DNA of 64,000 nt, from positions 1,089,450-1,153,449 of the forward strand of contig OZ220482.1 of the NCBI GenBank assembly GCA_965116145.1, read 5' to 3'. This DNA comes from Thermoanaerobaculia bacterium (GTDB taxonomy: Bacteria > Acidobacteriota > Thermoanaerobaculia > Multivoradales > Multivoraceae). Positions within the stretch are counted from its first letter, which is position 1; each line of letters starts with the position of its first letter. This document shows, piece after piece, positions 5,599 through 62,830 of the stretch. The notes below the pieces were generated by a model. That model was not told the origin of the DNA, did no database searches, and saw nothing but the letters and a program-made list of their open reading frames with translations. Both the position numbers and the translations under genes were made by a program.

Positions 5599-6594
5599 GT
5601 GGCCCGACCCGTAACACTGTTCACCGGCCAGTGGGCCGACCTGCCCATCGCCGACCTCTGTCCGCTCGCCGGCGAACTCGGCTACGACGGACTGGAGCTC
5701 GCCTGCTGGGGCGACCACCTCGAGGTCGACCGCTGCGACGCCGACTACGCCGCGGCGCGGCGCAGCCTGCTGAAGCAGCACGGGCTCGAACTCCATGCGA
5801 TCAGCAACCACCTGGTCGGGCAGGCGGTATGCGACCGGATCGACGCCCGCCACGAAGCGATCCTGCCGCCCCATGTCTGGGGCGACGGCAACCCGGAGGA
5901 CGTCCGCAGACGCGCCGCCGACGAGATGATCCGCACCGGTGAAGCGGCGAAGGACCTGGGGCTTTCGGTGGTCAACGGCTTCGTCGGCAGCTCGATCTGG
6001 CATCTGCTCTACTCCTTCCCGCCGGTGCCGCCGTCGATGATCGACGAAGGGTTCGCCGACTTCGCGGCGCGCTGGACGCCGATCCTCGACGCCTATCGGG
6101 AGCTCGGCGTGCGCTTCGGCCTGGAGGTCCATCCGACCGAGATCGCCTTCGACACGGTGACCGCAGAGCGCGCGATCGACGCCCTGGACGGCCACTCCGC
6201 CTTTGGCTTCAACTACGACCCGAGCCACCTCGGCTACCAGGGCGTCGACTATGTCGACTTCATCCGCCGCTTCGGCGACCGCATCGTCCACGTCCACATC
6301 AAGGACGCATCGTGGTCCGACCAGCCGAAACCCTGCGGCGTCTTCGGAGGCCACACCGGCTTCGGCGACCACCGCCGGTTCTGGGACTTCCGGTCGCCCG
6401 GCCGCGGCTCGGTCGACTTCGAGGAGGTCATCCGGGCCCTGAACGACATCGGCTACGACGGTCCGCTCTCGGTCGAGTGGGAGGACTCCGGCATGGACCG
6501 CAGGCACGGCGCTGCCGAAGCCGCGGACTTCGTCCGCGCCCTCGACTTCGCCCCCTCGGCAATCGCCTTCGACGCCGCCTTCGAAGACAGGTGA
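5599..6594 (+). CDS. sugar phosphate isomerase/epimerase (xylose-isomerase-like TIM barrel) family protein
   Basis: 331 aa with a GTG start. Motifs GYDGLEL, HVHIKD and the C-terminal region [13 protein letters not shown] are characteristic of the AP endonuclease 2 / xylose-isomerase-like TIM-barrel fold. Confidence 0.9.
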
Positions 6595-48245: not shown

Positions 48246-48491
48246 ATGACGACGATCGGCGCCTACGAAGCCAAGACCCACCTGCCGCGACTCCTCGACC
48301 GCGTCGGCCTCGGTGAATCCCTGACCATCACCCGACACGGGCGGCCGATTGCCCGGCTGACACCCATCGAGAAGGACGACCGGGAACGCGCCGCCGAGGC
48401 GGCCCGGCGCATCGAAGAGCGGCGCCGGCGGCTCGGACAGGCGACCCTGGCCGAGCTGATCGACTCGATCCACGAAGGTCACCGCTATTGA
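48246..48491 (+). CDS. Phd/YefM-family antitoxin
   Basis: This is the last 82 codons of track ORF 47010..48491. MTTIGAYEAKTHLPRLLDRVGLGESLTITRHGRPIARLTPIE is the classic Phd/YefM N-terminus. Confidence 0.8.
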   Translation: MTTIGAYEAKTHLPRLLDRVGLGESLTITRHGRPIARLTPIEKDDRERAAEAARRIEERRRRLGQATLAELIDSIHEGHRY

Positions 48492-48910
48492 GCGTCCTCG
48501 TTGTCGACAACTCCATCGTGCTCTGCTGGTGTCTGGCGGACGAGGTCGATCCGCTGGCGCAGCACGCACTGCTCCTGACCATCGGGCAGGGCGCGGTCGC
48601 TCCACGGCTCTGGCGGTACGAGCTCTGCAACGCGTTGCTCGTCAACGAGCGGCGGGGGCGCCTGAAGGCCGCCGACACTCGCGCCGCCCTCTTCGACCTC
48701 GATCAGATGCGTATCGAGCTCGACGTCGACCACGACGAGCCGAAGGTCCTCGACCTGGCGCGCAGAGGCGATCTCACCGCGTACGACGCCGCCTACCTCG
48801 AGGTCGCACGGCGCCGCGGCCTGCCGCTGGCGACCCTGGATCAGCGGCTTCGGGATGCCGCCGCCGCGGATGGAACGCCGCTGCTCGACGACGGGCCGGC
48901 AGGGCCATAG
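48488..48910 (+). CDS. vapC: PIN-domain toxin (VapC family)
   Basis: 140 aa. A TTG start overlaps the antitoxin stop (TTGA). VVDNSIVLCW...D...AYDAAYLEVA carries PIN acidic residues. Confidence 0.8.
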   Translation: MSVLVVDNSIVLCWCLADEVDPLAQHALLLTIGQGAVAPRLWRYELCNALLVNERRGRLKAADTRAALFDLDQMRIELDVDHDEPKVLDLARRGDLTAYDAAYLEVARRRGLPLATLDQRLRDAAAADGTPLLDDGPAGP

Positions 48911-49811: not shown

Positions 49812-50067
49812 GGTCCTTGCCCTCGGCTCGGGATGTGTCCAGGAAGCCGACAAAGCGTAGCAATCCGCGGCGAACGGCGGCGCGCCTGTCTGCCTGCGAC
49901 GACACCGGCAAGCCCGAGCGGTCCCTGAACCGCCCTCGGTCAGGTCCCGCGGCAGCCGTGGCGACCACATGCGGGATGGAGGGGTAGCGCCGTCGGGCGG
50001 GCAAGGTGGACACGAACGCAGCACGACTCTTGTCTTGCCAGGACTGTTGTACTAACGTGCGCCGCCG

Positions 50068-50460
50068 ATGCGGCGCCGGAGCGACTCGCCCAGGAGCAAC
50101 TCACTGCTTTCCACCGTCAGCGCGCTTGGGCTGACGGTCGCCACGCTGTTCAGCGGAGCGTGGGAAGCGAGCGGGCACGGCCACGACCCGGCCACGGAGA
50201 ATGCGGGTCGGTGCACGGTCGAGTACGACGCCGAGATCGCCAGGTCCCCGAACCGCGCCGTCATCACCAGCGCCGCAGCGCCGCACGACCACTCGTGCCT
50301 CGCCTGCGAGCTCGGACGCTCGAAGACCACGGCCAACGGCGGAGCCGCCGGGCTCAGCCCCCGCGACCGTCTGCCGGCCGCGGAAGGCATCCCGAGCAAG
50401 GGACGCCCGCAGACCGGCGAGCGCTGGCAGCAGACCGCCCGCGGGCCGCCCCGGGTCTGA
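50068..50460 (+). CDS. small putative metal-binding protein, module copy 1 (N-terminal TM/signal; HGHDP, HDHSCLAC motifs)
   Basis: 130 aa, MRRRSDSPRSNSLLSTVSALGLTVATLFSGAWEASGHGHDPATENAGRCTV...HDHSCLACELGRS...RDRLPAAEGIPSKGRPQTGERWQQTARGPPRV. A paralog at 53643..54029 has a near-identical N-terminus and C-terminal tail. Confidence 0.55.
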   Translation: MRRRSDSPRSNSLLSTVSALGLTVATLFSGAWEASGHGHDPATENAGRCTVEYDAEIARSPNRAVITSAAAPHDHSCLACELGRSKTTANGGAAGLSPRDRLPAAEGIPSKGRPQTGERWQQTARGPPRV

Positions 50461-50738
50461 GTCCATAGCACCTCCGATCCCGACCCTGAGCGTCAGTCGC
50501 GCCGGAGTCGGTCGGAAGCCGCCGCGGACAACAGCGCCCCCTTCGTCGGGGGAACACCGACAGAGCCCGTCGCTGGCTCGTCGGCCCGTCGCTGCCAGTC
50601 TGGCTGACAGGCAGGAGTCGCAGGTCGCAAGACCGACGACTGGCTGTCTGTGCCTGGCTGCCAGTGCGGCCGCCAGCAGTCAGCAACCAGCAGCCAGCAC
50701 TTATCGATTCAGACCGAACTACCCAGGAGTTCTCCTAC

Positions 50739-53114
50739 ATGCTCTCCCTTCAGATCAGGCCTTCACATCTCTCGCCTCCGCTCCGCTACCGAGCGGCCGC
50801 GGGCGCCGTTCTCGCCGTCCTGGCTCTTCTTCTCGTTCCACCGGCAGCCAGCGCCCAGGAAACCGGATCCGTCGTCGGCAACCTCGAAACCGACGGCGAG
50901 AGGATCGTCCTCGCCGTGGCGCGGATTCCCGAGCTGGGCATCAGTACCGCGGTCTCAACGGACGGCGCGTTCCGCTTCGACGAGCTGCCGACCGGCGCCT
51001 GGCTAGTCGTCGTCGACGTTCCAGCCGTCGGCACGGCCCAGGGCACGGTGACGGTCACCGGCGGCGCCGAAGCGGCGATCGATCTGGAGATGCGCCATGG
51101 CATGCACTCGGACGAGATCGTCATCACCGCGACCGGCGACCTGCGCCGCGCCTCGGAGCTGGCGACTCCTGTCACCGTGCTGTCGGCCACGGACCTCCAG
51201 TTGCGCCAGGGCGCCACCTTGGGCGAGACGCTCGAAGGTGAACCCGGCGTGGCGTCAACCGCGTTCGTACCCGGCGTCGGGCGGCCCGTCATCCGCGGTC
51301 TGACCGGCGCCCGGGTGCGGGTGCTGGAAGGCGGTATCGACAGCGGCGACACCTCCGCCGCCAGCCCCGACCACGCGGTGACCTTCGAACCGGCGCACGC
51401 CACGAGAATCGAAGTGCTGCGCGGCCCCGCCACGCTCCGCTACGGCTCGGAGGCCATCGGCGGCGTGGTCAACGTGATCGACGGACGGATTCCCGAAGAA
51501 AGGCCGGTCCGGACAGTCCGCGGCACGATCGACCTGCGCGGCGGCTCGGCCGCTGACGAACAGATGGGTGCGGTCCAGCTCACCGGCGGCAGCGGCGACT
51601 GGGCCTGGCACCTCGGCGCCGTCAGCCGGGAGACCGATCCCTACGACATCCCCGGTTTCGCGCGTGTCGAGGAGGATCACGACGACCATGACGACCATGA
51701 CGATCACGACGACGAAGCGGAGAACTCGTTCGGAGTCGTTCCGAACACCGGGCTGACCAACGAGAGCGGACGGTTCGGCTTCACCCGGTTCTTCGGTGAC
51801 CGCGGTTTCATCGGCGCCTCGGTCAGCGGCTTCGACACGAACTACGGAATTCCTCCTGGCGCTCACACCCACGCGCACGAAGAAGATGGCCACGACGACC
51901 ACGACGACCACGAGGACCATGACGATCACGATGACCACGATGACGTCCCGATCCGCATCGACATGAAGCAGCGCCGCGCGGACCTTCGGGCCGAGGCCCT
52001 GCCAACCGGCGGCGTCTTCCAGCGGATCGCGGTTCAGATGGCGGGGACCGACTACGAGCACGTCGAGCTCGAGGGCACGAGAGCCGGCACGCTGTTCTTC
52101 AACGAGTTCTTCGAGACCCGGGTCGAGATGTTCCAGCGCGAGCGCGACCGCAACCGCGGCTCAGTCGGTCTCCAGTACACCGACCGCAACATCTCCGTGT
52201 TCGGCGAGGAGGCGGTCGTGCCCCCCACGCAGTCCCGGGGATGGGCGCTCTTCACCTCCCAGGAGATAGAGGCCGGCCCCGTCCGCTGGCAGTTCGGTGC
52301 GCGCCTGGAGACGCTCGATCACAACCCGACCGGCTCCGCCAGCGACAGGTCGCGCGACGGCGTGTCCGCTTCCGCCGGCCTGGTCTGGGACACCGACTCC
52401 GTCTGGACGCTCGGCGTGTCGGCAGCCCGCTCGGTCCGCATGCCGAGCGCAGAGGAGCTCTACTCCGACGGCGTGCACGCGGCCACCAGCTACTACGAGA
52501 TCGGCGATCCGAACCTGGGCAACGAGGTCGGGACCGGGGTCGACGTGTCGCTGCGAAGAACGGAAGGCCGCCTGACCGGCGTGCTGACCTTCTTCCGCCA
52601 GAACTTCAGCGACTTCATCTACCAGGCCTTCACCGGCGAAGAGAAGCATGGAGCCTCGGTGTTGCGCTCCAACCAGAGGGACGCGACGATGACCGGCGCC
52701 GAGCTCCGGACCCGGATCGAAGTCGTTGATGTCGGCGGGCATCACATGCACGTGGAGCTGCTGGGAGACACGGTCGACGCGGAGATCGACGCCGGCGGCA
52801 ACCTCCCCCGGACCCCGCCGATGGGCTTCGGCGCCGGACTGCACTACCACGGTCATGACTGGCGGGCCGCCGTCGAGGGACGCTGGATCGACAACCAGAA
52901 CGACGTCGCGGAACTCGAAACCCCGACGGAGGGCTATACGATCGTGAACGCCCACGTCGGCCGACGCGTGATCCTTGGCAACCGGATCCTCGACGTGCTC
53001 CTGCGCGGACGCAACCTGACCGACGAGGAAGCCCGCGTCCACACATCGTTCCTGAAGAACTTCGCTCCGCTGCCAGGACGTGACGTAACGCTCTCGGCCC
53101 GTTTCTGGTTCTGA
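50739..53114 (+). CDS. TonB-dependent receptor, module copy 1, with an N-terminal CarboxypepD_reg-like domain and two acidic His/Asp-rich inserts
   Basis: About 791 aa. Signal peptide, plug, barrel, and a C-terminal aromatic terminus SARFWF. Inserts EEDHDDHDDHDDHDDEAEN and HAHEEDGHDDHDDHEDHDDHDDHDDVPIR. Highly similar to 54280..56841. Confidence 0.9.
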   Translation: MLSLQIRPSHLSPPLRYRAAAGAVLAVLALLLVPPAASAQETGSVVGNLETDGERIVLAVARIPELGISTAVSTDGAFRFDELPTGAWLVVVDVPAVGTAQGTVTVTGGAEAAIDLEMRHGMHSDEIVITATGDLRRASELATPVTVLSATDLQLRQGATLGETLEGEPGVASTAFVPGVGRPVIRGLTGARVRVLEGGIDSGDTSAASPDHAVTFEPAHATRIEVLRGPATLRYGSEAIGGVVNVIDGRIPEERPVRTVRGTIDLRGGSAADEQMGAVQLTGGSGDWAWHLGAVSRETDPYDIPGFARVEEDHDDHDDHDDHDDEAENSFGVVPNTGLTNESGRFGFTRFFGDRGFIGASVSGFDTNYGIPPGAHTHAHEEDGHDDHDDHEDHDDHDDHDDVPIRIDMKQRRADLRAEALPTGGVFQRIAVQMAGTDYEHVELEGTRAGTLFFNEFFETRVEMFQRERDRNRGSVGLQYTDRNISVFGEEAVVPPTQSRGWALFTSQEIEAGPVRWQFGARLETLDHNPTGSASDRSRDGVSASAGLVWDTDSVWTLGVSAARSVRMPSAEELYSDGVHAATSYYEIGDPNLGNEVGTGVDVSLRRTEGRLTGVLTFFRQNFSDFIYQAFTGEEKHGASVLRSNQRDATMTGAELRTRIEVVDVGGHHMHVELLGDTVDAEIDAGGNLPRTPPMGFGAGLHYHGHDWRAAVEGRWIDNQNDVAELETPTEGYTIVNAHVGRRVILGNRILDVLLRGRNLTDEEARVHTSFLKNFAPLPGRDVTLSARFWF
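51669..51716 (+). repeat. coding 9-bp (HDD) repeat tract 1 in TBDR copy 1
   Basis: gat cac gac gac cat gac gac cat gac gat cac gac gac: tandem CAY-GAC-GAY units. Confidence 0.8.
51880..51946 (+). repeat. coding (HDD) repeat tract 2 in TBDR copy 1
   Basis: ggc cac gac gac cac gac gac cac gag gac cat gac gat cac gat gac cac gat gac. Confidence 0.8.
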
Positions 53115-53132
53115 AGCCAGCCAGCCTGAACG

Positions 53133-53196
53133 AACCCGTTGGGGGTTGGGGCCGAAGAGACCGGAGTCCGTCCGGCCGGCAACCCCCAAACGGGGC
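53133..53196 (+). terminator. long terminator-like hairpin after TBDR copy 1, with stems related to the tRNA-Glu 3' end
   Basis: cccgttgggggttg...ccggccggcaacccccaaacggg: 13-14 bp stems around a roughly 32-nt loop. The same kind of element follows TBDR copy 2. Confidence 0.5.
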
Positions 53197-53367
53197 CTGG
53201 CTCCAGACACACGCATGGAGCGAACCGCAACCGGATCCTGCCGCCGCGGTTCCGGCGGCGGCTGGCGGTCGAGGCGGCGGCGGACCCTGGGCTGGAAACG
53301 AAGGACGCGAACACCGACCACCCCGGCGCGGGCGCGGATCGACAATCTGCATGCCGCAGCACATCCA

Positions 53368-53552
53368 GCCCGTGGCAAGAGTCACGCTGCATTCGTTCAG
53401 CCATGCGTCCACACGGCTGCGTTGCTCTTCGGTCACCTGCGCCCCATGTGCGTACGTTCCCGTCGGTCTGGCGGCTGCCACCGTGGTCGCGCCTTGACGG
53501 ACGGGCGCCTGGACCGCTCTCGGTGCGACCCGCACTCTTCGCCGCGGGCTGC
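53368..53552 (-). repeat. MITE-like repeat, copy F (inverted orientation, between the two TBDR modules)
   Basis: GCCCGTGGCAAGAGTCACGCTGCATTCG...GCTGCGTTGCTCTTCGGTCACCTGCGCCCCATGTGCG...GGACGGGCGCCTGGACCGCTCTCGGTGCGACCCGCACTCTTCGCCGCGGGCTGC is the reverse complement of the element consensus. Confidence 0.75.
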
Positions 53553-53642
53553 CAGGCGAGGAGCAACGCAGCCGCGCGATGTTCCTCACGGGTTGCCAGG
53601 CCGCCAGTCACCGTGCAGAAACCTGTCTGCTACTGTCCGCCG

Positions 53643-54029
53643 ATGCGTCGCAGGACGGACTCACTGCTTGCCGCCGTCAACGCGCTTGCGCTGACGGTCG
53701 CCACCCTGTTCACCGGGGCGTGGGACGCGAGCGGGCACGGCCACGACCCGGACGCAGAGAACGCGGGCCGGTGCACGGTCGATCACGAAGGCGGGATCGA
53801 CGAGACCGCCGCGTCCACGAGCCGGGCCGCCATCACCGGGGCCGGAGCGTCGCACGACCACTCTTGCGTGGCCTGCCTGCTCGGCCGCTCCAGGACCACC
53901 GCAGCAGGCAAGGCCGTCGGGCCTGGCCCCCGGGACCGCCTGCCGGCCGCGCAAGGAACCCCGAGCAAGAGCAGCCCGCAGACCGGCGAGCGCTGGCAGC
54001 AGGCCGCCCGCGGGCCGCCCCGGGCCTGA
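53643..54029 (+). CDS. small putative metal-binding protein, module copy 2
   Basis: This is the last 129 codons of track ORF 53139..54029. MRRRTDSLLAAVNALALTVATLFTGAWDASGHGHDPDAENAGRCTVDHEG...HDHSCVACLLGRS...RDRLPAAQGTPSKSSPQTGERWQQAARGPPRA. Confidence 0.55.
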   Translation: MRRRTDSLLAAVNALALTVATLFTGAWDASGHGHDPDAENAGRCTVDHEGGIDETAASTSRAAITGAGASHDHSCVACLLGRSRTTAAGKAVGPGPRDRLPAAQGTPSKSSPQTGERWQQAARGPPRA

Positions 54030-54279
54030 GTCTGCAGGACCTCCGATCCCGGCCCTGAGCGCCAGTCGCACCGGAGCCGGTCGCAGGCCGCCGCGGACAA
54101 CAGCGCCCCTTTGTCGACGCAACACCGACAGAGCCCGTCGCTGCCAGCCTGGCTGACACGCACGAATCGCAGGTCACAAGACCGACGGTTCGTTTCTATG
54201 CGCCTGCTGTCGGCGCGGCTGCCAGCAGCCAGTACCTCCCGCCTTGACTCGGACAGAACTACCCAGGAATTACCTCACC

Positions 54280-56841
54280 ATGCTCTCTCTGCTCTCTCTT
54301 CAGACCATGCCTTCCCGTCCCTTGTCGCCGCTCCGCTGCCGAGCGGCCGCGGGCGCCGTTCTCGCCGCCCTGATCCTTCTCCTCGTGCCACCGGCGACCG
54401 TCGCCCAGGAAACCGGCTCCGTCGTCGGCAAGGTCGAAACTCACGGCGAGAGGATCGTCCTCGCCGTGGCGCGGATTCCCGAACTGGGCATCAGCACCGC
54501 GGTCTCCACGGACGGTGCATTCCGCTTCGACGAGCTGCCGGCCGGCGCCTGGCTCGTCGTCGTCGACATCCCGGCCTTCGGCACGGCCCAGGGCATGGTG
54601 ACGGTCACCGGCGGCGCCGAGGAGGCTATCGACCTGGAGATGCGCCATGGTGTGCACTCGGACGAGATCGTCGTCACCGCAACTGGCGACCTGCGCCGCG
54701 CCTCGGAGCTGGCCAACCCCGTCACCGTCCTGTCGGCCACGGATCTCCAGTTGCGACTGGGCGCCACCCTGGGCGAGACACTCGAAAGCGAACCCGGCGT
54801 GGCGTCGACCGCCTTCGTACCCGGCGCCGCGCGGCCGATCATCCGCGGTCTGACCGGCGCCCGGGTGCGGGTGCTGGAAGGCGGTCTCGACAGCGGCGAC
54901 ACCTCCGCCGCCAGCCCCGACCACGCGGTGACCTTCGAACCGGCGCAAGCCGAGCAGATCGAAGTACTGCGCGGCCCCGCCACGCTCCGCTACGGCTCGG
55001 AGGCCATCGGCGGCGTGGTCAACGTGATCGACGGACGGATTCCCACCGAGAGGCCGGTCCGGGCAGTCGGCGGCACGTTCGACCTGCGCGGCGGCTCGGC
55101 TGCCGACGAACGGATGGGGGCGGTCCAGCTCGACGGCGGCAGCGGCGACTGGGCCTGGCACCTCGGCGCCGTCAGCCGGGAGACCGATCCCTACGACATC
55201 CCCGGCTACGCACGTGTCGAGGAAGATCACGACGACCATGACGACGGCGATGACCATGACGACGGCGACGATCACGACGACGGCGATGACCATGACGATC
55301 ACGATGACCACGAGGATGAAGACCACGACGACGACCATGACCACGAAGCGGAGAACTCCTTCGGAATGGTCCCGAACACCGGATTGACCACCGAGAGCGG
55401 ACGGTTCGGCTTCACCCGGTTCTTCGGCGACCGCGGCTTCATCGGGGTCTCGGTCAGCGGCTTCGACACGGACTACGGACTACCTCCCGGCGCCCACAGT
55501 CACGCGCATGAGGAAGATGATCACGACGACCATGATGGTCACGACGACGGCGACGACCATGACGATCACGACGACGGCGACGATCACGACGACGGCGACG
55601 ATCACGACGATGGCGATGACCATGACGATCATGATGACCACGACGATCACGACGACCACGGAGACGAGGAACTCCCGATCCGCGTCGACATGAAGCAGCG
55701 TCGCGTGGACGTTCGGGCCGAGGCTCTGCCGACCGCCGGCGTCTTCCAGCGGATCAAGGTCCAGATGGCAGGGACCGACTACGAGCACGTCGAGCTCGAG
55801 GGCCCGAGCCCCGGCACGACGTTCTTCAACGAGTTCTTCGAGACCCGGGTCGAGATGTTCCAGCGGGAGCGCGGCCGCAACCGCGGCTCAGTCGGTCTCC
55901 AGTACACCGATCGCGACCTCTCCGCGTTCGGCGAGGAAGCACTCGTGCCTCCCGCGCAGTCCCGGGGATGGGCGGTGTTCACCTCCCAGGAGATCGAGGC
56001 CGGCCCTGTCCGCTGGCAGTTCGGCGCACGCCTGGAGACGCTCGATCACAACCCGACCGGATCCGCCGCCGACAGGTCGCACGACGGCGTATCCGCTTCC
56101 GCCGGCCTGGTCTGGGACGCCGACCCCGCCTGGACGCTCGGCGTGTCGGCAGCCCGCTCGGTCCGCCTGCCGAGCGCTGAAGAGCTCTACTCCGACGGCC
56201 TGCACGTGGCCACCCTGAGTTACGAGATCGGCGATCCGAACCTGAGCAACGAGGTCGGGACCGGGATCGACGTGTCGCTGCGAAGAACGGAAGGCCGCCT
56301 GACCGGCGAGCTGACCTTCTTCCGCCAGAACTTCAGCGACTTCATCTACCAGGCCTTTACCGGCGAAGAGGACCATGGAGCCTCGGTTCTGCGTTTCAGC
56401 CAGAAGGACGCGACGATGACCGGCGCCGAGCTGAGGGCCCGGATCGAGGTCCTGGATGTCGACGACCACCACCTGCACCTGGAGTTCCTCGGCGACACGG
56501 TCGATGCGGACCTTGACGCAGGCGGCAACCTCCCGCGGATCCCGCCGCTGAGCTTCGGCGCCGGAGTCCACTACCACGGTCATCACTGGCGGGCCGCCGT
56601 CGAGGGGCGCTGGATCGACGACCAGAACGACGTCGCGGAAGTCGAAACGCCGACGGAGGGCTACACGATGGTGAACGCCCATGTCGGCCGACGCGTCATC
56701 CTCGGCAACCAGATCCTCGACGTGCTCCTGCGCGGGCGCAACCTGACCGACGAGGAAGCCCGCGTCCACACGTCGTTCCTGAAGAACTTCGCCCCCCTGC
56801 CAGGACGCGACGTCACGCTCTCGGCCCGCTTCTGGTTCTAG
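54280..56841 (+). CDS. TonB-dependent receptor, module copy 2, with greatly expanded His/Asp/Gly tracts
   Basis: About 853 aa; collinear with copy 1. Its inserts are about 40 and 52 residues of (HDD)/(GDD) repeats, against about 13 and 18 in copy 1. Confidence 0.9.
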   Translation: MLSLLSLQTMPSRPLSPLRCRAAAGAVLAALILLLVPPATVAQETGSVVGKVETHGERIVLAVARIPELGISTAVSTDGAFRFDELPAGAWLVVVDIPAFGTAQGMVTVTGGAEEAIDLEMRHGVHSDEIVVTATGDLRRASELANPVTVLSATDLQLRLGATLGETLESEPGVASTAFVPGAARPIIRGLTGARVRVLEGGLDSGDTSAASPDHAVTFEPAQAEQIEVLRGPATLRYGSEAIGGVVNVIDGRIPTERPVRAVGGTFDLRGGSAADERMGAVQLDGGSGDWAWHLGAVSRETDPYDIPGYARVEEDHDDHDDGDDHDDGDDHDDGDDHDDHDDHEDEDHDDDHDHEAENSFGMVPNTGLTTESGRFGFTRFFGDRGFIGVSVSGFDTDYGLPPGAHSHAHEEDDHDDHDGHDDGDDHDDHDDGDDHDDGDDHDDGDDHDDHDDHDDHDDHGDEELPIRVDMKQRRVDVRAEALPTAGVFQRIKVQMAGTDYEHVELEGPSPGTTFFNEFFETRVEMFQRERGRNRGSVGLQYTDRDLSAFGEEALVPPAQSRGWAVFTSQEIEAGPVRWQFGARLETLDHNPTGSAADRSHDGVSASAGLVWDADPAWTLGVSAARSVRLPSAEELYSDGLHVATLSYEIGDPNLSNEVGTGIDVSLRRTEGRLTGELTFFRQNFSDFIYQAFTGEEDHGASVLRFSQKDATMTGAELRARIEVLDVDDHHLHLEFLGDTVDADLDAGGNLPRIPPLSFGAGVHYHGHHWRAAVEGRWIDDQNDVAEVETPTEGYTMVNAHVGRRVILGNQILDVLLRGRNLTDEEARVHTSFLKNFAPLPGRDVTLSARFWF
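55221..55347 (+). repeat. expanded coding (HDD/GDD) repeat tract 1 in TBDR copy 2
   Basis: gat cac gac gac cat gac gac ggc gat gac cat gac gac ggc gac gat cac ... Confidence 0.8.
55511..55671 (+). repeat. expanded coding (HDD/GDD) repeat tract 2 in TBDR copy 2
   Basis: About 52 codons of CAY-GAY-GAY / GGY-GAY-GAY units. Confidence 0.8.
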
Positions 56842-56861
56842 CCAGCCAGCCTGCTTGACCG

Positions 56862-56922
56862 AACCCGTTGGGGGCGCCGAACACACCGGGATCCGCGCCC
56901 GGCCGGCCAACCCCCAACGGAT
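56862..56922 (+). terminator. terminator-like hairpin after TBDR copy 2, containing a tRNA-Glu 3'-end-like sequence
   Basis: cccgttggggg...ccggccggccaacccccaacgg, followed by attcgttacgagcgcaagc, which resembles the tRNA segment ccccaacgggattcgaacccgtgttgcc. Confidence 0.5.
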
Positions 56923-56961
56923 TCGTTACGAGCGCAAGCACCGAGTGCGGAAGCGCGCACG

Positions 56962-57415
56962 CCGACCATCCCGTTGGGGACGACGATCGCGCCCCAAGGC
57001 GCTACACCGGCAGCACGTAACGGATTCGCGCCAAGCGCAACCGCCGAAGGCGGGGCGCGCACGCCGACCATCCCGTCGGGGACGACGATCGCGCCCCAGG
57101 AGGCTACACCGGCAGCACGTAACGGATTCGCGCCAAGCGCACACGCCGAAGGCGGGATGCGCCCGCCGACTATCCCGTTGGGGACGACGATCGCGCCCCA
57201 GGAGGCTACACCGGCAGCACGTAGCGGATTCGCGCCAAGCGCAACCGCCGAAGGCGGGGCGCGCGCACCGACCATCCCGTCGGGGACGACGATCGCGCCC
57301 CAGGAGGCTACACCGGCAGCACGTAACGGATTCGCGCCAAGCGCAACCGCCGAAGGCGGGGCGCGCACGCCGACTATCCCGTTGGGGGCGGCGATCGCGC
57401 CCCAGGGGGCGCGAT
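56962..57415 (+). repeat. tandem array of 102-bp units (4 full copies plus a partial one, over 90 % identical) abutting the 3' end of tRNA-Glu
   Basis: Unit starts at 56962, 57064, 57166, 57268 and 57370; exact period 102. Unit: ccgaccatcccgttggggacgacgatcgcgccccaggaggctacaccggcagcacgtaacggattcgcgccaagcgcaaccgccgaaggcggggcgcgcacg. The last partial unit merges into the tRNA. Each unit carries tRNA-Glu 3'-end-like segments in both orientations. Confidence 0.85.
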
Positions 57416-57492
57416 TGGCGTCCCCAACGGGATTCGAACCCGTGTTGCCAGCTTGAAAGGCTGGAGTCCTGACCTGGCTAGACGATGGGGAC
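57416..57492 (-). tRNA. tRNA-Glu (anticodon TTC)
   Basis: The minus strand reads GTCCCCATCGTCTAGCCAGGTCAGGACTCCAGCCTTTCAAGCTGGCAACACGGGTTCGAATCCCGTTGGGGACGCCA. The cloverleaf is nearly identical to E. coli tRNA-Glu. The anticodon loop is CTTTCAA, and an encoded CCA is present. Confidence 0.9.
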
Positions 57493-57609: not shown

Positions 57610-59082
57610 GTGACCGGCGCGCAGAGACGCACCGTCGGCGGATCGCAGGCAGATCGGCCGGTGCTGATGTGGTTTCGTCGCGACCTCCGGCTGACGGACA
57701 ACCCGGCGCTCGCCTGGGCAGCCCGGACGCAGCGCCCGGTGGTCCCCGTCTTCCTGCTCGACGACGATCAGCCGGGCCGACGGCCGCCGGGCGGAGCCTC
57801 CCGCTGGTGGCTGCACGGCAGTCTCGAAGCGCTGCAGACCTCGCTGGACGGGCTGAGCAGCCGTCTGACGCTGCGCCGCGGCGCCGCCGACACGGTCCTC
57901 GGGCAATTGGTGCACGAGACCGGCGCGGCGGACATCGTCTGGAGTCGGCTCTACGACCCGGACACGATCCAGCGCGACAAGAGCATCAAGGCCCGCTTCG
58001 CCGGCAGCGGAGTGACCGCAAGGTCCTTCAACGCCGGGCTGCTCTTCGAACCCTGGACCGTCCGCAGCGGCAAGGGCGAGCCGTACCGGGTCTTCACGCC
58101 GTTCTGGCGACGCTGCCTGCAGGAAGAACTCGACGCTCCGACCGACAGTCCCCCGGCTGCACTCTCCGCCCCGTCGGCCTGGCCCAGGAGCGACGACCTG
58201 GACGACTGGCGGCTGCGCCCCGGCACACCGGACTGGGCAGCAGGCCTGCGCGCGGCGTGGCGGCCCGGAGAAGCCGGCGCCGGCGACGTGCTCGACACGT
58301 TTCTCGCCACGGGTGTCGACCGCTACAGCAAGGACCGCGACCTGCCCGGCACGACCGGCACCAGCCGCCTGTCTCCCCACCTGCACTTCGGCGAGATCGG
58401 ACCCCGCCAGATCGCGGCGGCCCTCAAGCCGATGGCTGGCCCAGCCGGGCGGGACGCCTTCCTCCGCCAGCTTGGCTGGAGAGAATTCAGCCACCACCTG
58501 CTCTACCACAACCCCGACATGGCCGACACCAACCTGCGAAGCGGCTTCGACGCGATGCCCTGGCGCAGCGACCCCGATGCCCTGCGCCGCTGGCAGCGCG
58601 GCCAGACCGGCTATCCCCTGGTCGACGCCGGAATGAGAGAGCTGTGGACCACCGGCTGGATGCACAACCGCGTGCGCATGGTCACCGCGTCGTTCCTGAC
58701 CAAGCACCTGCTGCTCGACTGGCGCCTCGGCGAGAACTGGTTCCACGACACCCTGGTGGACGCCGACTGGGCCAACAACAGCACCGGCTGGCAATGGGTC
58801 GCCGGCTGCGGCGCCGATGCCGCCCCCTACGTCCGTGTCTTCAACCCCGTCGCCCAGTCGCGCCGGTTCGACCCGGAAGCGCGCTACCTGCGGAAGTGGC
58901 TTCCCGAGCTCGCACACCTGCCGGACGACCTGATCCACGCCCCGTGGCAAGCGTCCGAAGCAGAGCTCGGCAAAGCCGACATCCGCTTGGGCGCCGACTA
59001 CCCGCACCCGATCGTCGACCACGCCGCCGCCCGAGCCAGAGCCCTCGACGCCTGGCGCCGCCACGTGCAGCAGTCCATGTGA
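57610..59082 (+). CDS. phr: deoxyribodipyrimidine photolyase (cryptochrome/photolyase family)
   Basis: 490 aa; GTG at 57610 or ATG at 57667 (MWFRRDLRLTDNPAL). The FAD-binding C-terminal domain has WREF, TGYPLVDAGMREL, TGWMHNRVRM and NSTGWQWVAG motifs. Confidence 0.9.
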   Translation: MTGAQRRTVGGSQADRPVLMWFRRDLRLTDNPALAWAARTQRPVVPVFLLDDDQPGRRPPGGASRWWLHGSLEALQTSLDGLSSRLTLRRGAADTVLGQLVHETGAADIVWSRLYDPDTIQRDKSIKARFAGSGVTARSFNAGLLFEPWTVRSGKGEPYRVFTPFWRRCLQEELDAPTDSPPAALSAPSAWPRSDDLDDWRLRPGTPDWAAGLRAAWRPGEAGAGDVLDTFLATGVDRYSKDRDLPGTTGTSRLSPHLHFGEIGPRQIAAALKPMAGPAGRDAFLRQLGWREFSHHLLYHNPDMADTNLRSGFDAMPWRSDPDALRRWQRGQTGYPLVDAGMRELWTTGWMHNRVRMVTASFLTKHLLLDWRLGENWFHDTLVDADWANNSTGWQWVAGCGADAAPYVRVFNPVAQSRRFDPEARYLRKWLPELAHLPDDLIHAPWQASEAELGKADIRLGADYPHPIVDHAAARARALDAWRRHVQQSM

Positions 59083-59391: not shown

Positions 59392-59673
59392 ATGGCCGAA
59401 ATTCGGACAGCCAAGGTGTCCGCCACGGGCCAGGTCGTCATACCCGCCGCCATCCGAACGAAGCTGGGACTCAAGCCCGGCGCCCGGTTCGTCGTCCTCG
59501 GCAAGGGCAACACGATCGTGCTCAGGCCCATCGCGAAGCCCTCGATGCGCGAGTTCACCGAGACCGTCGAACAAGCACGCGAGGCGGCCCGCCGCGCGGG
59601 AGTGAAGAAATCGGACGTTGCCGCGGCAGTTGTCGACGCGCGGCTTGCGGGCGATAGCATCGGAGCCAGCTAA
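59392..59673 (+). CDS. AbrB/MazE/SpoVT-family DNA-binding protein (antitoxin-like)
   Basis: MAEIRTAKVSATGQVVIPAAIRTKLGLKPGARFVVLGKGNTIVLRPI is the swapped-hairpin barrel motif. The track ORF 59155..59673 starts inside repeat G. Confidence 0.7.
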   Translation: MAEIRTAKVSATGQVVIPAAIRTKLGLKPGARFVVLGKGNTIVLRPIAKPSMREFTETVEQAREAARRAGVKKSDVAAAVVDARLAGDSIGAS

Positions 59674-60539: not shown

Positions 60540-60830
60540 ATGAAGAAGCGGCGCCGTTTCACGGCGACATTCAAGTCGAAGGTGGCTCTGGAGGCTCTTC
60601 GTGAGGACCGTCCGCTGTCGGAGATAGCGTCTCGTCACCGTGTGCATCCGAACCAGGTTGGGAACTGGAAGCGCCAGGCGATCGCGGGTCTTGCCGCGAC
60701 GTTCGGGGAGAAGTCGTCTGGTCGCAGTCGGGACACCGAGGAGGAGATACGCGATCTTCACGCGAAGATCGGGGAGTTGACGATCGAGCGGGATTTCTTG
60801 TCGAGGGGCTCGGGCGTTGACCCGGCCGGA
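60540..60830 (+). CDS. IS3-family transposase OrfA (HTH); 3' end approximate, with a frameshift into orfB expected
   Basis: MKKRRRFTATFKSKVALEALREDRPLSEIASRHRVHPNQVGNWKRQ...LHAKIGELTIERDFL. There is no in-frame stop (the track ORF runs to 61883), and no canonical A_AAA_AAG slippery site was found. Confidence 0.7.
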
Positions 60831-61752
60831 GCGCCTTCAGATGGTGAATCGGGAAGGTTCGGAGCTGAGCTTGAGCCGGCGGTGCCGGCTGCTTCAGATC
60901 AGCCGTTCTTCGCTGTACTACCGCCCGCAGGGGGAGAGCGCGGAGACACTGTCGCTGATGCGGGAGATCGACGAGCTGCACACCGCTCATCCGTTCTACG
61001 GTTCCCGTCAGATGGTGCGCCACCTGCGCCGGCAGGGCATCCGTGTCGGTCGTCACCGTGTGCGTCGTCTGATGCGCCTGATGGGGATTGCGGCGATCTA
61101 CCAGTCGCCGCGGACCAGTGCTCCCGGCCCGGAGCACCCTGTGTACCCGTACCTGCTCAGGGAGCTGACGATCGAGCGTCCCGACCAAGTGTGGTGCGCC
61201 GACATCACCTACATCCCGGTGCGGGGCGGCTTCCTGTACCTGGTCGCGGTGATGGACTGGGCGAGCCGTCGGGTGCTGTCCTGGCGTCTGTCGAACAGTC
61301 TCGACGTCTCGTTCTGCATCGAAGCGCTCGACGAGGCGTTCGAGCGCCACGGCAGGCCTGCGATCTTCAACACGGACCGGGGCAGCCAGTTCACCAGCGC
61401 GGAGTTCACGGGCCGTCTGCAGGCGGCCGGCGTTGCGATCTCGATGGACGGTCGGGGCCGGTGCATGGACAACATCTTCATCGAGCGCCTGTGGCGTTCG
61501 CTGAAGTACGAGGCGGTCTACCTCCACGACCTCGCCGACGGGGTCGAGGCGCGGCGGGTCATCGGCGAGTGGATCGCCTACTACAATGCCGACAGGCCGC
61601 ACTCCGCGCTGGATGGCGCAACGCCCTTCAAGGCGCACCAGGCGACCATGGCAAGCAGCGAGAAAATCGACATTCCGCACATTATCCACAGGTTTTCCAC
61701 AGCTCCGGAGGCTACTGCTGCGGATTTCATTCAACCATGGAGTACACCTTAG
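60817..61752 (+). CDS. IS3-family transposase OrfB (DDE / rve integrase core)
   Basis: ...YGSRQMVRHLRRQGIRVGRHRVRRLMR...WCADITYIPVRGGFLYLVAVMDWASRRVLSW...FNTDRGSQFTS...DNIFIERLWRSLKYE: D, D and E residues in canonical spacing. Confidence 0.85.
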   Translation: MTRPERLQMVNREGSELSLSRRCRLLQISRSSLYYRPQGESAETLSLMREIDELHTAHPFYGSRQMVRHLRRQGIRVGRHRVRRLMRLMGIAAIYQSPRTSAPGPEHPVYPYLLRELTIERPDQVWCADITYIPVRGGFLYLVAVMDWASRRVLSWRLSNSLDVSFCIEALDEAFERHGRPAIFNTDRGSQFTSAEFTGRLQAAGVAISMDGRGRCMDNIFIERLWRSLKYEAVYLHDLADGVEARRVIGEWIAYYNADRPHSALDGATPFKAHQATMASSEKIDIPHIIHRFSTAPEATAADFIQPWSTP

Positions 61753-62830
61753 CCCGGACCGAAACTGTCCAACAAACCGGGTCAAGCTCAAGGATGGCCG
61801 AGTACTCGAAGTGGCCGTCTTCGGGGCTGAAGAGGTCGAGCTGGAAGTTCTTGCGGGTCTCGTGGTTGACCTTGCGGCGGTAGAGCACGAAGCGTCGGAC
61901 CCGTCCCCAGACCTCAAGTCGGGCCTCGGCGTAGCTGGTGTGGTGGTCAAGGCGCCTCCACTGGGCCCGGCCCGCGACCTGCTTGAGGTTGAGCCAGGGA
62001 TGGAACGGGGCCTTGATCGCGTACTCGACGCCTGCCCGGTCCAGCACGTCGAGAACGTCCTGGAGGAAGAAGGCCCCGTCCATGCGGAGTTCCAGTGTGC
62101 GGCGCCGCCCCACCGCGGCGCGGACCTGCGCGATCAGCTCGGCAATGAAGCCGACCGCCGCCTTGCCGTCATGGTTGTTGCCGGGCCGGTTCAGGAGCCT
62201 GACGATCTTTCCCTCCTGAGCCTCGTAGCCGGTGATCGGGTAGTAGCTGGGCACCTTGCGCCGGTTCGGGTTGTAGCCCCGGCGCGCGCCCTTGACCTTG
62301 AGTCCCGTGCTGATCACCGAACCGTCGACGTCAAGGGTCAGCCGCCGACCGCCGGAACGCTTCAAGGACCCTTCCACGAGCCCCTCGTTCAGTTTCGCGA
62401 GACGCTCGACATCCCGGCCGGAGAACCGCTGCAGCCAGCCGCTCATCGTCCGCGGCGCCGGCAGTCTCGACAGCCCCGCGAAGCGGGTGACAACGGGGTC
62501 CGACTGCTCGTGGACCAGGTGACTGATGCGACGACCTCCGACCAGGATCAGCGCCAGAAGGGTCAGCAGCATCGACACCACACCGAAGTCGGTCGAACGA
62601 AATCCCGAACCGACCGACCGCCGCAGCCTGGACACGAAGCCGCTCTTGCTCACGTACTCGCCGACGAGCTCGAGACCAGCATGCGACGTGACCTGCTGCA
62701 GGCCTGCTCTGAAGTCCACGATACCGTTGACACGACGCTTCAGTTCTGTTCTTCTTGATCGCACTGGGAGTGGCCTTTCGTCGATGGGTCCCGTGATGGG
62801 TTGAAAACACGAGAATAACCCATCCCGCAA
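61727..62830 (-). pseudogene. IS1380-family transposase, C-terminally truncated by the IS3 insertion
   Basis: GYNPNRRKVPSYYPI and the DDE region are typical of IS1380-family transposases. At 367 aa it is shorter than the usual 430 aa or more. The last 21 codons and the stop lie inside the IS3 right inverted repeat (61727-61790). Confidence 0.65.

Follow-up and report, generated by a model that had tools for sequence, protein, structure and literature searches.

What is the function of two adjacent copies of a small open reading frame (ORF) followed by a TonB-dependent receptor gene, and how is the receptor controlled? The question is raised by positions 50068-57492 of a 64,000-nucleotide stretch of DNA (hereafter the window) from a Thermoanaerobaculia bacterium of the phylum Acidobacteriota (contig OZ220482.1, positions 1,089,450 to 1,153,449), where a sequence-only reading had seen a duplicated metal-import system lying beside a tRNA-Glu gene. 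The reading argued for here, on sequence comparison, structural models and analogy, is that each module would be a post-transcriptionally controlled metal-uptake unit, combining a receptor of the ZnuD type with a CruR-like arrest-peptide leader, and we give it a probability of about 0.6. Zinc is the favoured effector because the ligands of ZnuD are present in the receptor and the putative sensor is rich in His. The sequence-only reading had proposed that the small protein is either metal-binding or regulatory; by analogy it is best read as a regulatory leader peptide of the CruR type rather than a structural partner, with the fixed geometry of its RGPP motif and the lack of a predicted fold making a stable metal-binding partner less likely. 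The further statement that the system matched nothing that could be named was too strong, CruR, the RAPP/RGPP arrest peptides and ZnuD being described relatives.

The duplicated locus

The locus consists of two collinear tandem modules, each with a small ORF of about 130 aa, a 250-278-nt spacer and a TonB-dependent receptor gene (Table 1), an arrangement borne out by the ORF layout and by a DNA identity of 82-91% that begins about 10 nt 5′ of the small ORF and extends some 85 nt beyond the receptor stop, the identity between modules being at background outside these limits. The listed receptor ORFs begin further upstream, at GTG 50664 (to 53114) and TTG 54244 (to 56841); the real starts are most likely ATG 50739 and ATG 54280, since a conserved AGGA(G/A) precedes each and the position is kept in relatives. 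The two small proteins are 63% identical and the two receptors 81%, with every large indel in the receptor alignment falling within the His/Asp tracts described below. Set against the other members, the small proteins are 68-72% identical to each other and at most 57% to others, and the receptors 87% to each other and at most 75% to others. The window copies are thus each other's closest relatives, which suggests either a duplication specific to the lineage or gene conversion; an older A/B pair, told apart by HDHSC versus HEHSC, is found in many relatives instead. The duplication, which might have been an assembly artefact, is real: the copies are 9-18% diverged, the proteins come from a contig of 3.73 Mb, a second small ORF of the same kind follows about 3 kb downstream of the first in 13 of the 44 related loci, and tandem pairs recur in chromosome-level assemblies of relatives.

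A small ORF with an invariant C-terminal geometry

A word-indexed search found 18 relatives of the small protein and a genome scan 40 loci with the small ORF, all in metagenome-assembled genomes of Acidobacteriota (Thermoanaerobaculia, 'Candidatus Multivorans' and Holophagales), while an exhaustive profile search of 1.84 billion representatives returned only 32 small-ORF proteins. None of the 22 matches from a profile search of a 5.8-billion set has a Pfam domain, and the relatives carry no Pfam domain and no name beyond 'hypothetical protein'. The family was counted as 60 small-ORF copies, from the window and 44 related loci, and these share a skeleton of a hydrophobic N-terminal helix ending in GAW, then GHGH, Cys-x-(V/I)-D-H, H-(D/E/G)-H-x-C-x-x-C and A-R-G-P-P.

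The motifs and near-identical C-terminus noticed at first sight are found in both window copies (GHGH(D), HDHSC(L/V)AC and ...GERWQQxARGPPRx), each of which ends in the same manner, with HDHSCLAC in copy 1 or HDHSCVAC in copy 2 followed by a 44-aa spacer, RGPP, two codons and TGA. Across the family the geometry is invariant: H[DEG]HxCxxC, a spacer of 43-44 aa between CxxC and RGPP, and exactly two codons between RGPP and the stop are each present in 60/60 copies, and the stop is UGA in 43 of the 46 distinct copies. Members as distant as 22-30% identity retain the motif skeleton and its spacing, such that the small ORFs are conserved, as the sequence-only reading needed them to be. Selection acts on the small-ORF peptide: the third codon position is the most variable of the three in every segment as measured by entropy, the Gly codons of RGPP are spread over GGA, GGG, GGT and GGC (13/13/12/8) and its Pro codons vary synonymously, yet the four amino acids are the same throughout. 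In sequence the spacer is conserved least of all parts (amino-acid entropy 1.76), while its length is fixed. AlphaFold predicts only the N-terminal helix (residues 8-31, predicted local distance difference test [pLDDT] ~95) and leaves the rest without a fold (overall pLDDT 61.7); the signal peptide was judged by inspection.

The small ORF travels with the receptor. A ZnuD-like receptor gene starts 136-280 nt downstream of it in all loci with enough DNA except two, locus L044 with a gap of 380 nt and locus L007 in which no large ORF was found downstream. In the distant module P0030 the small ORF is 28% identical; the receptor reaches 422 bits against the ZnuD model, and both loops again bear tracts, here of the form (HDDDE)n. 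Likewise, among receptor homologues only 49-55% identical, the three examined are all preceded by a small ORF in which His-rich motifs and CxxC are followed by a spacer of 43-44 aa and then by RGPP, or by RAPP in L049. Within the window, copy 1 has CTVEY in place of the C-x-(V/I)-D-H of almost all members, a nearly invariant His being replaced by Tyr, and carries a 5-residue insertion in the n-region of its signal peptide.

Relationship to CruR and other arrest peptides

CruR (Bp2923) of Bordetella pertussis is a DUF2946 upstream ORF with a signal peptide, a CxxC motif and RAPP three residues from its end, the CxxC-RAPP spacing of 45 residues being conserved within 1-2 residues in more than 2000 homologues (PMC9426467). 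Downstream come an intergenic region of 162 nt, in which C is favoured over G, and the TonB transporter gene bfrG; without copper the ribosome stalls at RAPP and Rho is blocked, while copper acting via CxxC relieves the stall and Rho terminates (PMC9426467). CruR is predicted to be unstructured and was not detectable as a protein, and a 2022 survey placed its homologues in Proteobacteria with a few in Planctomycetes, Firmicutes and Deinococcus, Acidobacteriota not being listed (PMC9426467). More recently RAPP and RGPP were identified as the most robust arrest cores, resisting EF-P, which proteomes avoid and which are enriched near the C-termini of small secreted proteins upstream of TonB-receptor, copper and other genes (Fujiwara et al. 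2025, PMC12992588). In the same work RGPP was functionally equivalent to RAPP, and ribosomes stalled on CruR in vitro had Pro3 in their P site and Pro4 in their A site (PMC12992588).

The modules resemble the CruR system in having a small exported protein, predicted to be unstructured, first in the operon, with CxxC, a fixed spacer (45 aa in CruR, 43-44 aa here) and Arg-x-Pro-Pro near the stop, then a long intergenic region in which C exceeds G and a TonB-dependent transporter gene. They differ in that RAPP plus three residues is replaced by RGPP plus two, that there are extra invariant His motifs (GHGH, CxVDH and the HxH before CxxC), that the receptor is ZnuD-like and not BfrG/OprC-like, with no PepSY_TM gene, that the leader is highly structured with a helix embedding the stop codon, and that the host phylum is Acidobacteriota and the Pfam score below threshold. 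The wider set of RAPP/RGPP arrest peptides (ApdA, ApdP and the S. lividans set, with the related SecM RAGP) likewise has a C-terminal RGPP, a localisation signal and a position upstream of the regulated gene, and an enrichment of such upstream ORFs before TonB-dependent receptor genes in Gram-negative phyla has already been reported (PMC12992588). Those studied monitor Sec/YidC or are uncharacterised, none being tied to zinc or to ZnuD-type receptors, and a helix embedding the stop codon is not described there (PMC12992588). CutF of Rhodobacter capsulatus is also a small exported protein whose Cys motif and C-terminal stalling control a downstream metal gene, but its motif set is different, the downstream gene encodes the multicopper oxidase CutO and the response is copper-specific (PMC9973294).

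A tentative suggestion in the sequence-only reading, that DUF2946-like proteins sit next to copper receptors, proved a good lead. The window copies themselves fall short of the Pfam threshold for DUF2946 (PF11162, cut-off 23.7 bits), copy 2 scoring 18 bits (E 0.005). Sub-threshold end-to-end matches to PF11162 were obtained for 14 of 18 close and 18 of 26 distant relatives, and the RAPP-type small ORF of L049, which lies upstream of a homologous receptor, reaches 24.1 bits, just over the cut-off. As the Pfam scores are sub-threshold and a profile alignment described below gave E 0.1, homology of the small ORF with CruR/DUF2946 is judged no more than likely.

The receptor is ZnuD-like

Receptor 1 comprises a signal peptide, a CarboxypepD_reg-like domain, a TonB-box-like EIVITAT segment, a plug and a 22-strand barrel. 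The original assignment to TonB-dependent receptors with a CarboxypepD_reg-like N-terminal domain holds for the plug and TonB barrel domains, which are clear in Pfam, and in part for the N-terminal domain, which is sub-threshold in the window receptors (20.7 and 21.5 bits against a cut-off of 32.3) and present in precomputed annotation of homologues. The top NCBIfam match of both receptors is ZnuD (NF038289; 358.5 and 359.7 bits, E ~1e-107), with haemin and haemoglobin receptor subfamilies as runners-up; since these scores lie below the curated cut-off of 950 bits the receptors are ZnuD-like relatives, not equivalogs. In a sequence search of the PDB, ZnuD (4rdr, E 5.7e-52) was the sole match below 1e-10. 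An AlphaFold model built from 70 homologues (pLDDT 84.4, predicted template modelling score 0.87) gave ZnuD entries as the top Foldseek matches (4rdr E 5e-44, TM 0.71-0.92), followed by the haem receptor ChuA at 1e-29, then OprC and BtuB, with PhuR and ShuA also there.

In ZnuD a high-affinity buried zinc site is formed by Asp99, His100, Glu340 and His499 (PMC4557270). These four ligands align with D211, H212, E443 and H580 (copy 1 numbering), which are invariant across the sequence alignment of the 70 homologues. We infer from sequence and model that the receptor imports a divalent metal across the outer membrane in a TonB-dependent, ZnuD-like manner, the most probable metal being zinc, in keeping with the metal-import role suggested at the outset. 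Compared with ZnuD of Neisseria meningitidis (PDB 4RDR, 4RDT and 4RVW; Calmettes et al. 2015, PMC4557270) the receptors share the plug-and-barrel fold, the four zinc ligands, clusters of His/Asp/Glu on extracellular loop 3 and a haem-receptor-like FRAP/NPNL region. They differ in being only 23-25% identical, in the extra N-terminal CarboxypepD_reg-like domain, in a pure (HDD)n repeat in place of the structured loop 3 clusters, with a second tract added in loop 2, and in the length (up to 76 aa) and hypervariability of the tracts; in addition no Zur box was found in 47 upstream regions, and control here appears to be post-transcriptional. ZnuK, ZnuL and ZnuM of Caulobacter crescentus are likewise zinc-scavenging TonB receptors of an environmental non-pathogen with several overlapping paralogues, but are under transcriptional Zur-box control with no leader peptide described (PMC4176598).

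Hypervariable His/Asp tracts on extracellular loops

Each receptor carries two His/Asp tracts, encoded by units of 9 nt or multiples of 9 nt as identified with Tandem Repeats Finder (TRF). Counted as runs of [HDEG], they are 16 and 23 residues long in copy 1 and 43 and 55 in copy 2, slightly above the 13/18 and 40/52 of the sequence-only reading, which had the repeat unit right. In the receptor model the two tracts are the sole long segments of low confidence and lie between strands 3-4 (tract 1) and 5-6 (tract 2). The connections between strands 2-3 and 4-5 being turns of 2-4 residues, the parity of the barrel places the tracts in extracellular loops 2 and 3, so that the model puts them on the surface and not in periplasmic turns, an outcome in favour of the sequence-only reading, which had named periplasmic turns as a refutation. 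Tract 2 aligns to residues ~241-298 of ZnuD loop 3, where it replaces two His/Asp clusters, and loop 3 is the zinc-capturing loop of ZnuD (PMC4557270).

Most relatives have tracts at the same two loops, ranging from 13 to 76 residues, those of the copy 1 receptor being the shortest of the clade. The rapid length evolution anticipated for them is seen among receptors that are 95-99.6% identical (for example 48 versus 54 aa at 99.6%), tract-free receptors all being 789 aa long. It is proposed that the tracts change length quickly by slippage or recombination. In L003 (7276-9735), a short-read Logan contig compared with L002 and L001, there is an A/B chimeric receptor with its junction inside His/Asp tract 2. 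Its N-terminal portion matches the A-type receptor of L002 at 100% identity, and its C-terminal portion matches a B-type receptor at 95.6% and the A type at no more than 66%; the contig also lacks the ABC importer and the second small ORF. Such a chimera reflects either recombination of tandem paralogues through the repeat or assembly collapse.

Upstream element and structured leader RNA

An alignment of 47 modules revealed an TGCTAACCT-like element 9-15 nt before the ATG of the small ORF (mean column conservation 0.83), followed in most relatives by CCTCC, while the sequence further upstream of this -10-like element is not conserved. No Shine-Dalgarno sequence was present upstream of the small ORF in this alignment, and this together with the position of the -10-like element suggests that the mRNA may be leaderless or nearly so. 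A search for Zur or Fur boxes had been recommended; the alignment contained no conserved palindrome or Zur- or Fur-like operator, the -10-like element being the only conserved feature upstream. Scanning 49.6-57.6 kb for sigma-70 promoters and intrinsic terminators gave no promoter, and terminators at chance level only.

As first described, the leader between the small ORF and receptor gene is conserved between the modules (278 and 250 nt, 82% identity), and in 37/37 modules its C content exceeds G by about 10 points, as in the CruR rut region. On 30 sequences the leader structure is 83.5% paired against 30-38% for slid controls, a comparison favoured by the structure having been partly derived from one of the tested sequences. 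The covariation score is 0.172 against 0.05-0.08 for slid controls and was reached in 0/500 shuffles, with real compensatory changes in hairpins 5 and 6. A long-range helix closes the leader and was recovered independently in the minimum free energy (MFE) folds of both window copies and in relatives. Its 5′ arm generally consists of the last base of the ORF, the UGA stop and GUCG, and its 3′ arm (CGACUCGG) lies about 26 nt 5′ of the receptor ATG; in copy 1 the arms GGUCUGAGUC and GAUUCAGACC form 10 pairs. An extension of this helix that would sequester the Shine-Dalgarno sequence was also considered and rejected as a conserved feature, being 63% paired with no covariation. In L041 (~5700-5760) the loop of a conserved leader hairpin (GATCAGCC...GCTGATC) carries an expanded CTAG microsatellite (CTAGCTAGCTAGCTAGCTAG).

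Proposed mechanism

In the mechanism that we propose, the disordered (His-Asp-Asp)n tracts of loops 2 and 3 would act as low-affinity 'fishing lines' that hand the ion to the buried Asp/His/Glu/His site. A ribosome translating the small ORF would stall at Arg-Gly-Pro-Pro, two codons before the stop, at which point the His/Cys cluster (HxH, CxxDH and HxHxCxxC) would be at least 44 residues from the peptidyl-transferase centre and hence just out of the exit tunnel. With Pro3 in the P site the stop codon would occupy nucleotides +13 to +15, at the leading edge of the ribosome, such that an RGPP-stalled ribosome would hold the 5′ arm of the closing helix open. When metal is scarce the stall would persist, keeping the leader open and/or shielded from Rho, and the receptor would be made. 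When metal is plentiful the nascent cluster would bind it, and its folding would pull on the chain and release the stall; the ribosome would then terminate, the leader close or Rho terminate transcription, and receptor synthesis drop. By analogy the sign of this response fits an uptake gene, as for CruR, and the footprint-on-helix model is proposed as a reason for the invariant 'two codons then UGA'.

A more specific version of this scheme is possible but doubtful. In it the small ORF would encode a natural zinc-sensing (at least non-copper) nascent peptide with a His5Cys3 mini-domain, exactly 44 residues from RGPP, that folds on metal at the tunnel to free the chain; the stalled ribosome would open the leader helix that embeds the stop codon, unlike the Rho-only model for CruR; and the hypervariable (HDD)n loops would be recombination substrates between tandem paralogues.

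Alternative explanations

Copper might instead be the metal that this mechanism senses and imports, as in CruR and OprC-type systems. CruR senses copper through CxxC, the characterised metal-sensing nascent peptides (CruR and CutF) all respond to copper, His/Asp tracts bind Cu(II) too, OprC structures are among the fold matches of the receptor, and there are weak matches to the TonB-copper family TIGR01778. These last reach only 35-39 bits against a cut-off of 472, however, while ZnuD is by far the closest relative in sequence and fold with its four zinc ligands invariant, the putative sensor has five conserved His besides its Cys residues, and no copper genes (PepSY_TM, PCuAC, YcnI or CopC) adjoin the modules in the neighbourhoods examined, which leaves copper an unlikely substrate. 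Import of a chelate (haem, a metallophore or a corrinoid), with the tracts serving elsewhere, for example in carrier-protein docking or calcium binding, would suit the FRAP/NPNL-like box common to ZnuD-type and haem receptors, the haemin/haemoglobin receptors as second-best NCBIfam matches with ChuA, PhuR and ShuA as next folds, and the Peripla_BP_2/FecCD/ABC importer directly downstream in some loci. It is nonetheless quite improbable given that Asp and Glu, the ligands peculiar to the zinc pocket of ZnuD, are retained, that ZnuD itself does not bind haem, that the tracts lie exactly at the site of the ZnuD zinc-capturing clusters and that 39 of the 44 loci, and the window, are without such an importer. 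As to the small ORF, a stable periplasmic or outer-membrane metal-binding partner (a chaperone or relay) in which RGPP is incidental would account for the signal-peptide-like N-terminus, the eight conserved His/Cys and the constant co-location with the receptor. That it is such a partner seems to us decidedly unlikely, for no structure is predicted beyond the signal helix, the 44-aa segment varies in sequence and not in length, a motif avoided by proteomes stands at a fixed distance from the stop in every copy, simple co-translation is ruled out by the long distance to the receptor gene, and CruR itself is not detectable as a protein. Finally, a window full of spurious overlapping ORFs, the conserved hairpins of the leader and the chimeric receptor of the short-read contig L003, possibly an assembly collapse, could be taken to mean that the small ORFs are chance ORFs of a high-GC genome, the leader acting purely as RNA, or that the duplication is an artefact. 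This has very little probability: the codon-position pattern and synonymous variation at invariant residues mark a translated ORF, the family keeps its motifs and spacing at 22-30% identity, the leaders have no Rfam match, and the divergence of the copies, the length of the contig and the tandem pairs of relatives all speak for a real duplication.

Several observations weigh against the preferred reading, that of a ZnuD-type receptor under a CruR-like leader, or against parts of it. CxxC is a classic Cu(I) motif. An importer of the FecCD type adjoins the receptor in five of the 44 loci (L002, L031, L034, L035 and L041), and such importers usually take chelates (haem, siderophores, corrinoids), not free zinc. 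The link to CruR is itself incomplete, with no PF11162 match for the copy 1 small protein in the Pfam scan, a score below threshold for copy 2, and no link in an hhalign comparison of the family profile with the single L049 sequence (E 0.1), and convergence is possible. Regarding the leader, the 8-bp core of the closing helix is 91% paired and conserved on both sides but shows no double-sided covariation, the helix is degraded in the three members with UAA/UAG stops and is not evident in the most distant module, the rejected extension offers no conserved sequestration of the Shine-Dalgarno sequence, and the strong structure differs from the CruR rut region, which is unstructured. Copy 1 may have an altered or relaxed function, since it has lost the His of C-x-(V/I)-D-H and its receptor has the shortest tracts in the clade.

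Feature coordinates and genomic surroundings

Table 1. Positions in the window of the elements of the two modules.
Feature	Position	Strand	Remarks
-10-like element, module 1	50050..50058	+	TACTAACGT; clade consensus TGCTAACCT; 9 nt upstream of small ORF 1
Small ORF 1	50068..50460	+	130 aa
Small ORF 1 motifs	GHGH 50173-50184; CTVEY 50212-50226; HDHSCLAC 50284-50307; RGPP 50440-50451	+	
Long-range helix 5′ arm, module 1	50454..50463	+	GGUCUGAGUC; contains small ORF 1 stop; MFE fold, RNAalifold, pair counts
Leader (intergenic region) 1	50461..50738	+	278 nt; C-rich over G; several conserved hairpins
Long-range helix 3′ arm, module 1	50706..50715	+	GAUUCAGACC; 9 nt upstream of AGGAG (50725-50729)
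ZnuD-like TonB-dependent receptor 1	50739..53114	+	791 aa from ATG 50739
His/Asp tract 1, receptor 1	51669..51716	+	EEDHDDHDDHDDHDDE; extracellular loop 2 (model); low pLDDT; TRF period 9
His/Asp tract 2, receptor 1	51876..51944	+	23 aa; extracellular loop 3 (model), equivalent to ZnuD loop 3
Stem-loop after receptor 1 stop	53135..53195	+	CCCGTTGGGGG ... CCCCCAAACGGGG; no U-run
-10-like element, module 2	53628..53636	+	TGCTACTGT
Small ORF 2	53643..54029	+	128 aa
Small ORF 2 motifs	GHGH 53733-53744; CTVDH 53772-53786; HDHSCVAC 53853-53876; RGPP 54009-54020	+	
Long-range helix 5′ arm, module 2	54025..54032	+	CCUGAGUC; contains stop codon
Leader (intergenic region) 2	54030..54279	+	250 nt
Long-range helix 3′ arm, module 2	54246..54252	+	GACUCGG; upstream of CAGGAA (54264-54269)
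ZnuD-like TonB-dependent receptor 2	54280..56841	+	853 aa
His/Asp(/Gly) tract 1, receptor 2	55219..55347	+	43 aa; loop 2 (model)
His/Asp(/Gly) tract 2, receptor 2	55507..55671	+	55 aa; loop 3 (model)
Stem-loop after receptor 2 stop	56864..56920	+	5′ arm matches 13/15 nt of tRNA-Glu 3′ end

Both receptor genes are followed by a stem-loop, that after receptor 1 being probably a terminator. The sequence-only reading had described each as carrying a sequence like the 3′ end of tRNA-Glu, which applies to copy 2 (13/15 nt) and barely to copy 1, in which there is no match within 3 mismatches to the 15-nt tRNA-Glu probe and only CCCGTTGGGG is shared. The idea that the module was acquired or amplified at tRNA-Glu was rejected, since the upstream neighbours (genes for a glyoxalase, a ~283-aa protein and an enoyl-CoA hydratase) keep their synteny in relatives that lack a tRNA at this site; tandem pairs are, besides, frequent in the clade.

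Between module 2 and tRNA-Glu lies a 102-bp tandem repeat (4.8 copies, 90% matches; 56916-57410 and 57416-57492), each unit of which repeats, exactly or with 1 mismatch, the final 15 nt of the tRNA T-arm/acceptor 3′ strand (ATCCCGTTGGGGACG) in opposite orientation to the tRNA gene. This pattern has 14 matches within 3 mismatches in the window against 3.5 expected. The last repeat copy and the tRNA 3′ end form an inverted repeat of ~60 nt, which accounts for the microRNA-like false hits that, with tRNA, were all that a search of Rfam at E up to 1 returned, the leaders being without match. The 102 nt correspond to 34 codons, with both strands open and no Pfam match, and the repeat could derive from att-site remnants or a tRNA-trailer structure. 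The 445-nt spacer after module 1 was considered as a decayed form of this repeat and rejected, its score of 28 lying within those of shuffles (maximum 33).

A Pfam scan of the neighbouring genes identified nothing metal-related. A Phd/YefM antitoxin and PIN-domain toxin pair (48252-48910) is inserted between genes that are adjacent or syntenic in relatives, and a MazE-like antitoxin is present at 59410-59673. Beyond tRNA-Glu there is a photolyase gene (57610-59082) and, further downstream, two transposase genes (60817-62830), an insertion sequence element with an rve integrase core on the + strand and DDE_Tnp_1 on the - strand. In the five related loci with an importer, the genes directly after that of the receptor encode a Peripla_BP_2 protein of lipoprotein type (419 aa), a FecCD permease and an ABC ATPase; in L002 (11211-14264) they are located between the two modules. 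NCBIfam typing of the linked importer gave generic FecCD, and the Peripla_BP_2 protein had neither an NCBIfam match nor a His-rich loop.

Significance

Both halves of the module belong to described kinds, arrest-peptide leaders on one side and ZnuD on the other. What is new, judged from sequence comparison, is the combination, in Acidobacteria, of a His-rich RGPP leader and a receptor of the ZnuD type, together with the leader helix that embeds the stop codon and the extreme, fast-evolving (HDD)n loops; by analogy, this combination implies nascent-chain sensing of a metal other than copper, probably zinc. If true, this would bring zinc (or another divalent metal), and Acidobacteria as hosts, within the reach of arrest-peptide sensing, and the Zur control expected of a zinc receptor would be replaced by post-transcriptional control. 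Nilsson et al. (Cell Reports, 2015) reportedly found in the laboratory that an arrest peptide can be released by a small domain that folds, in a zinc-dependent way, close to the tunnel exit, and the leader would then be a natural counterpart to that laboratory finding. The (HDD)n loops, at 13-76 residues and varying among near-identical strains, warn that short-read assemblies can collapse such loci, and would be a clear example, in uncultured marine Acidobacteria, of surface elements for metal capture that evolve rapidly.

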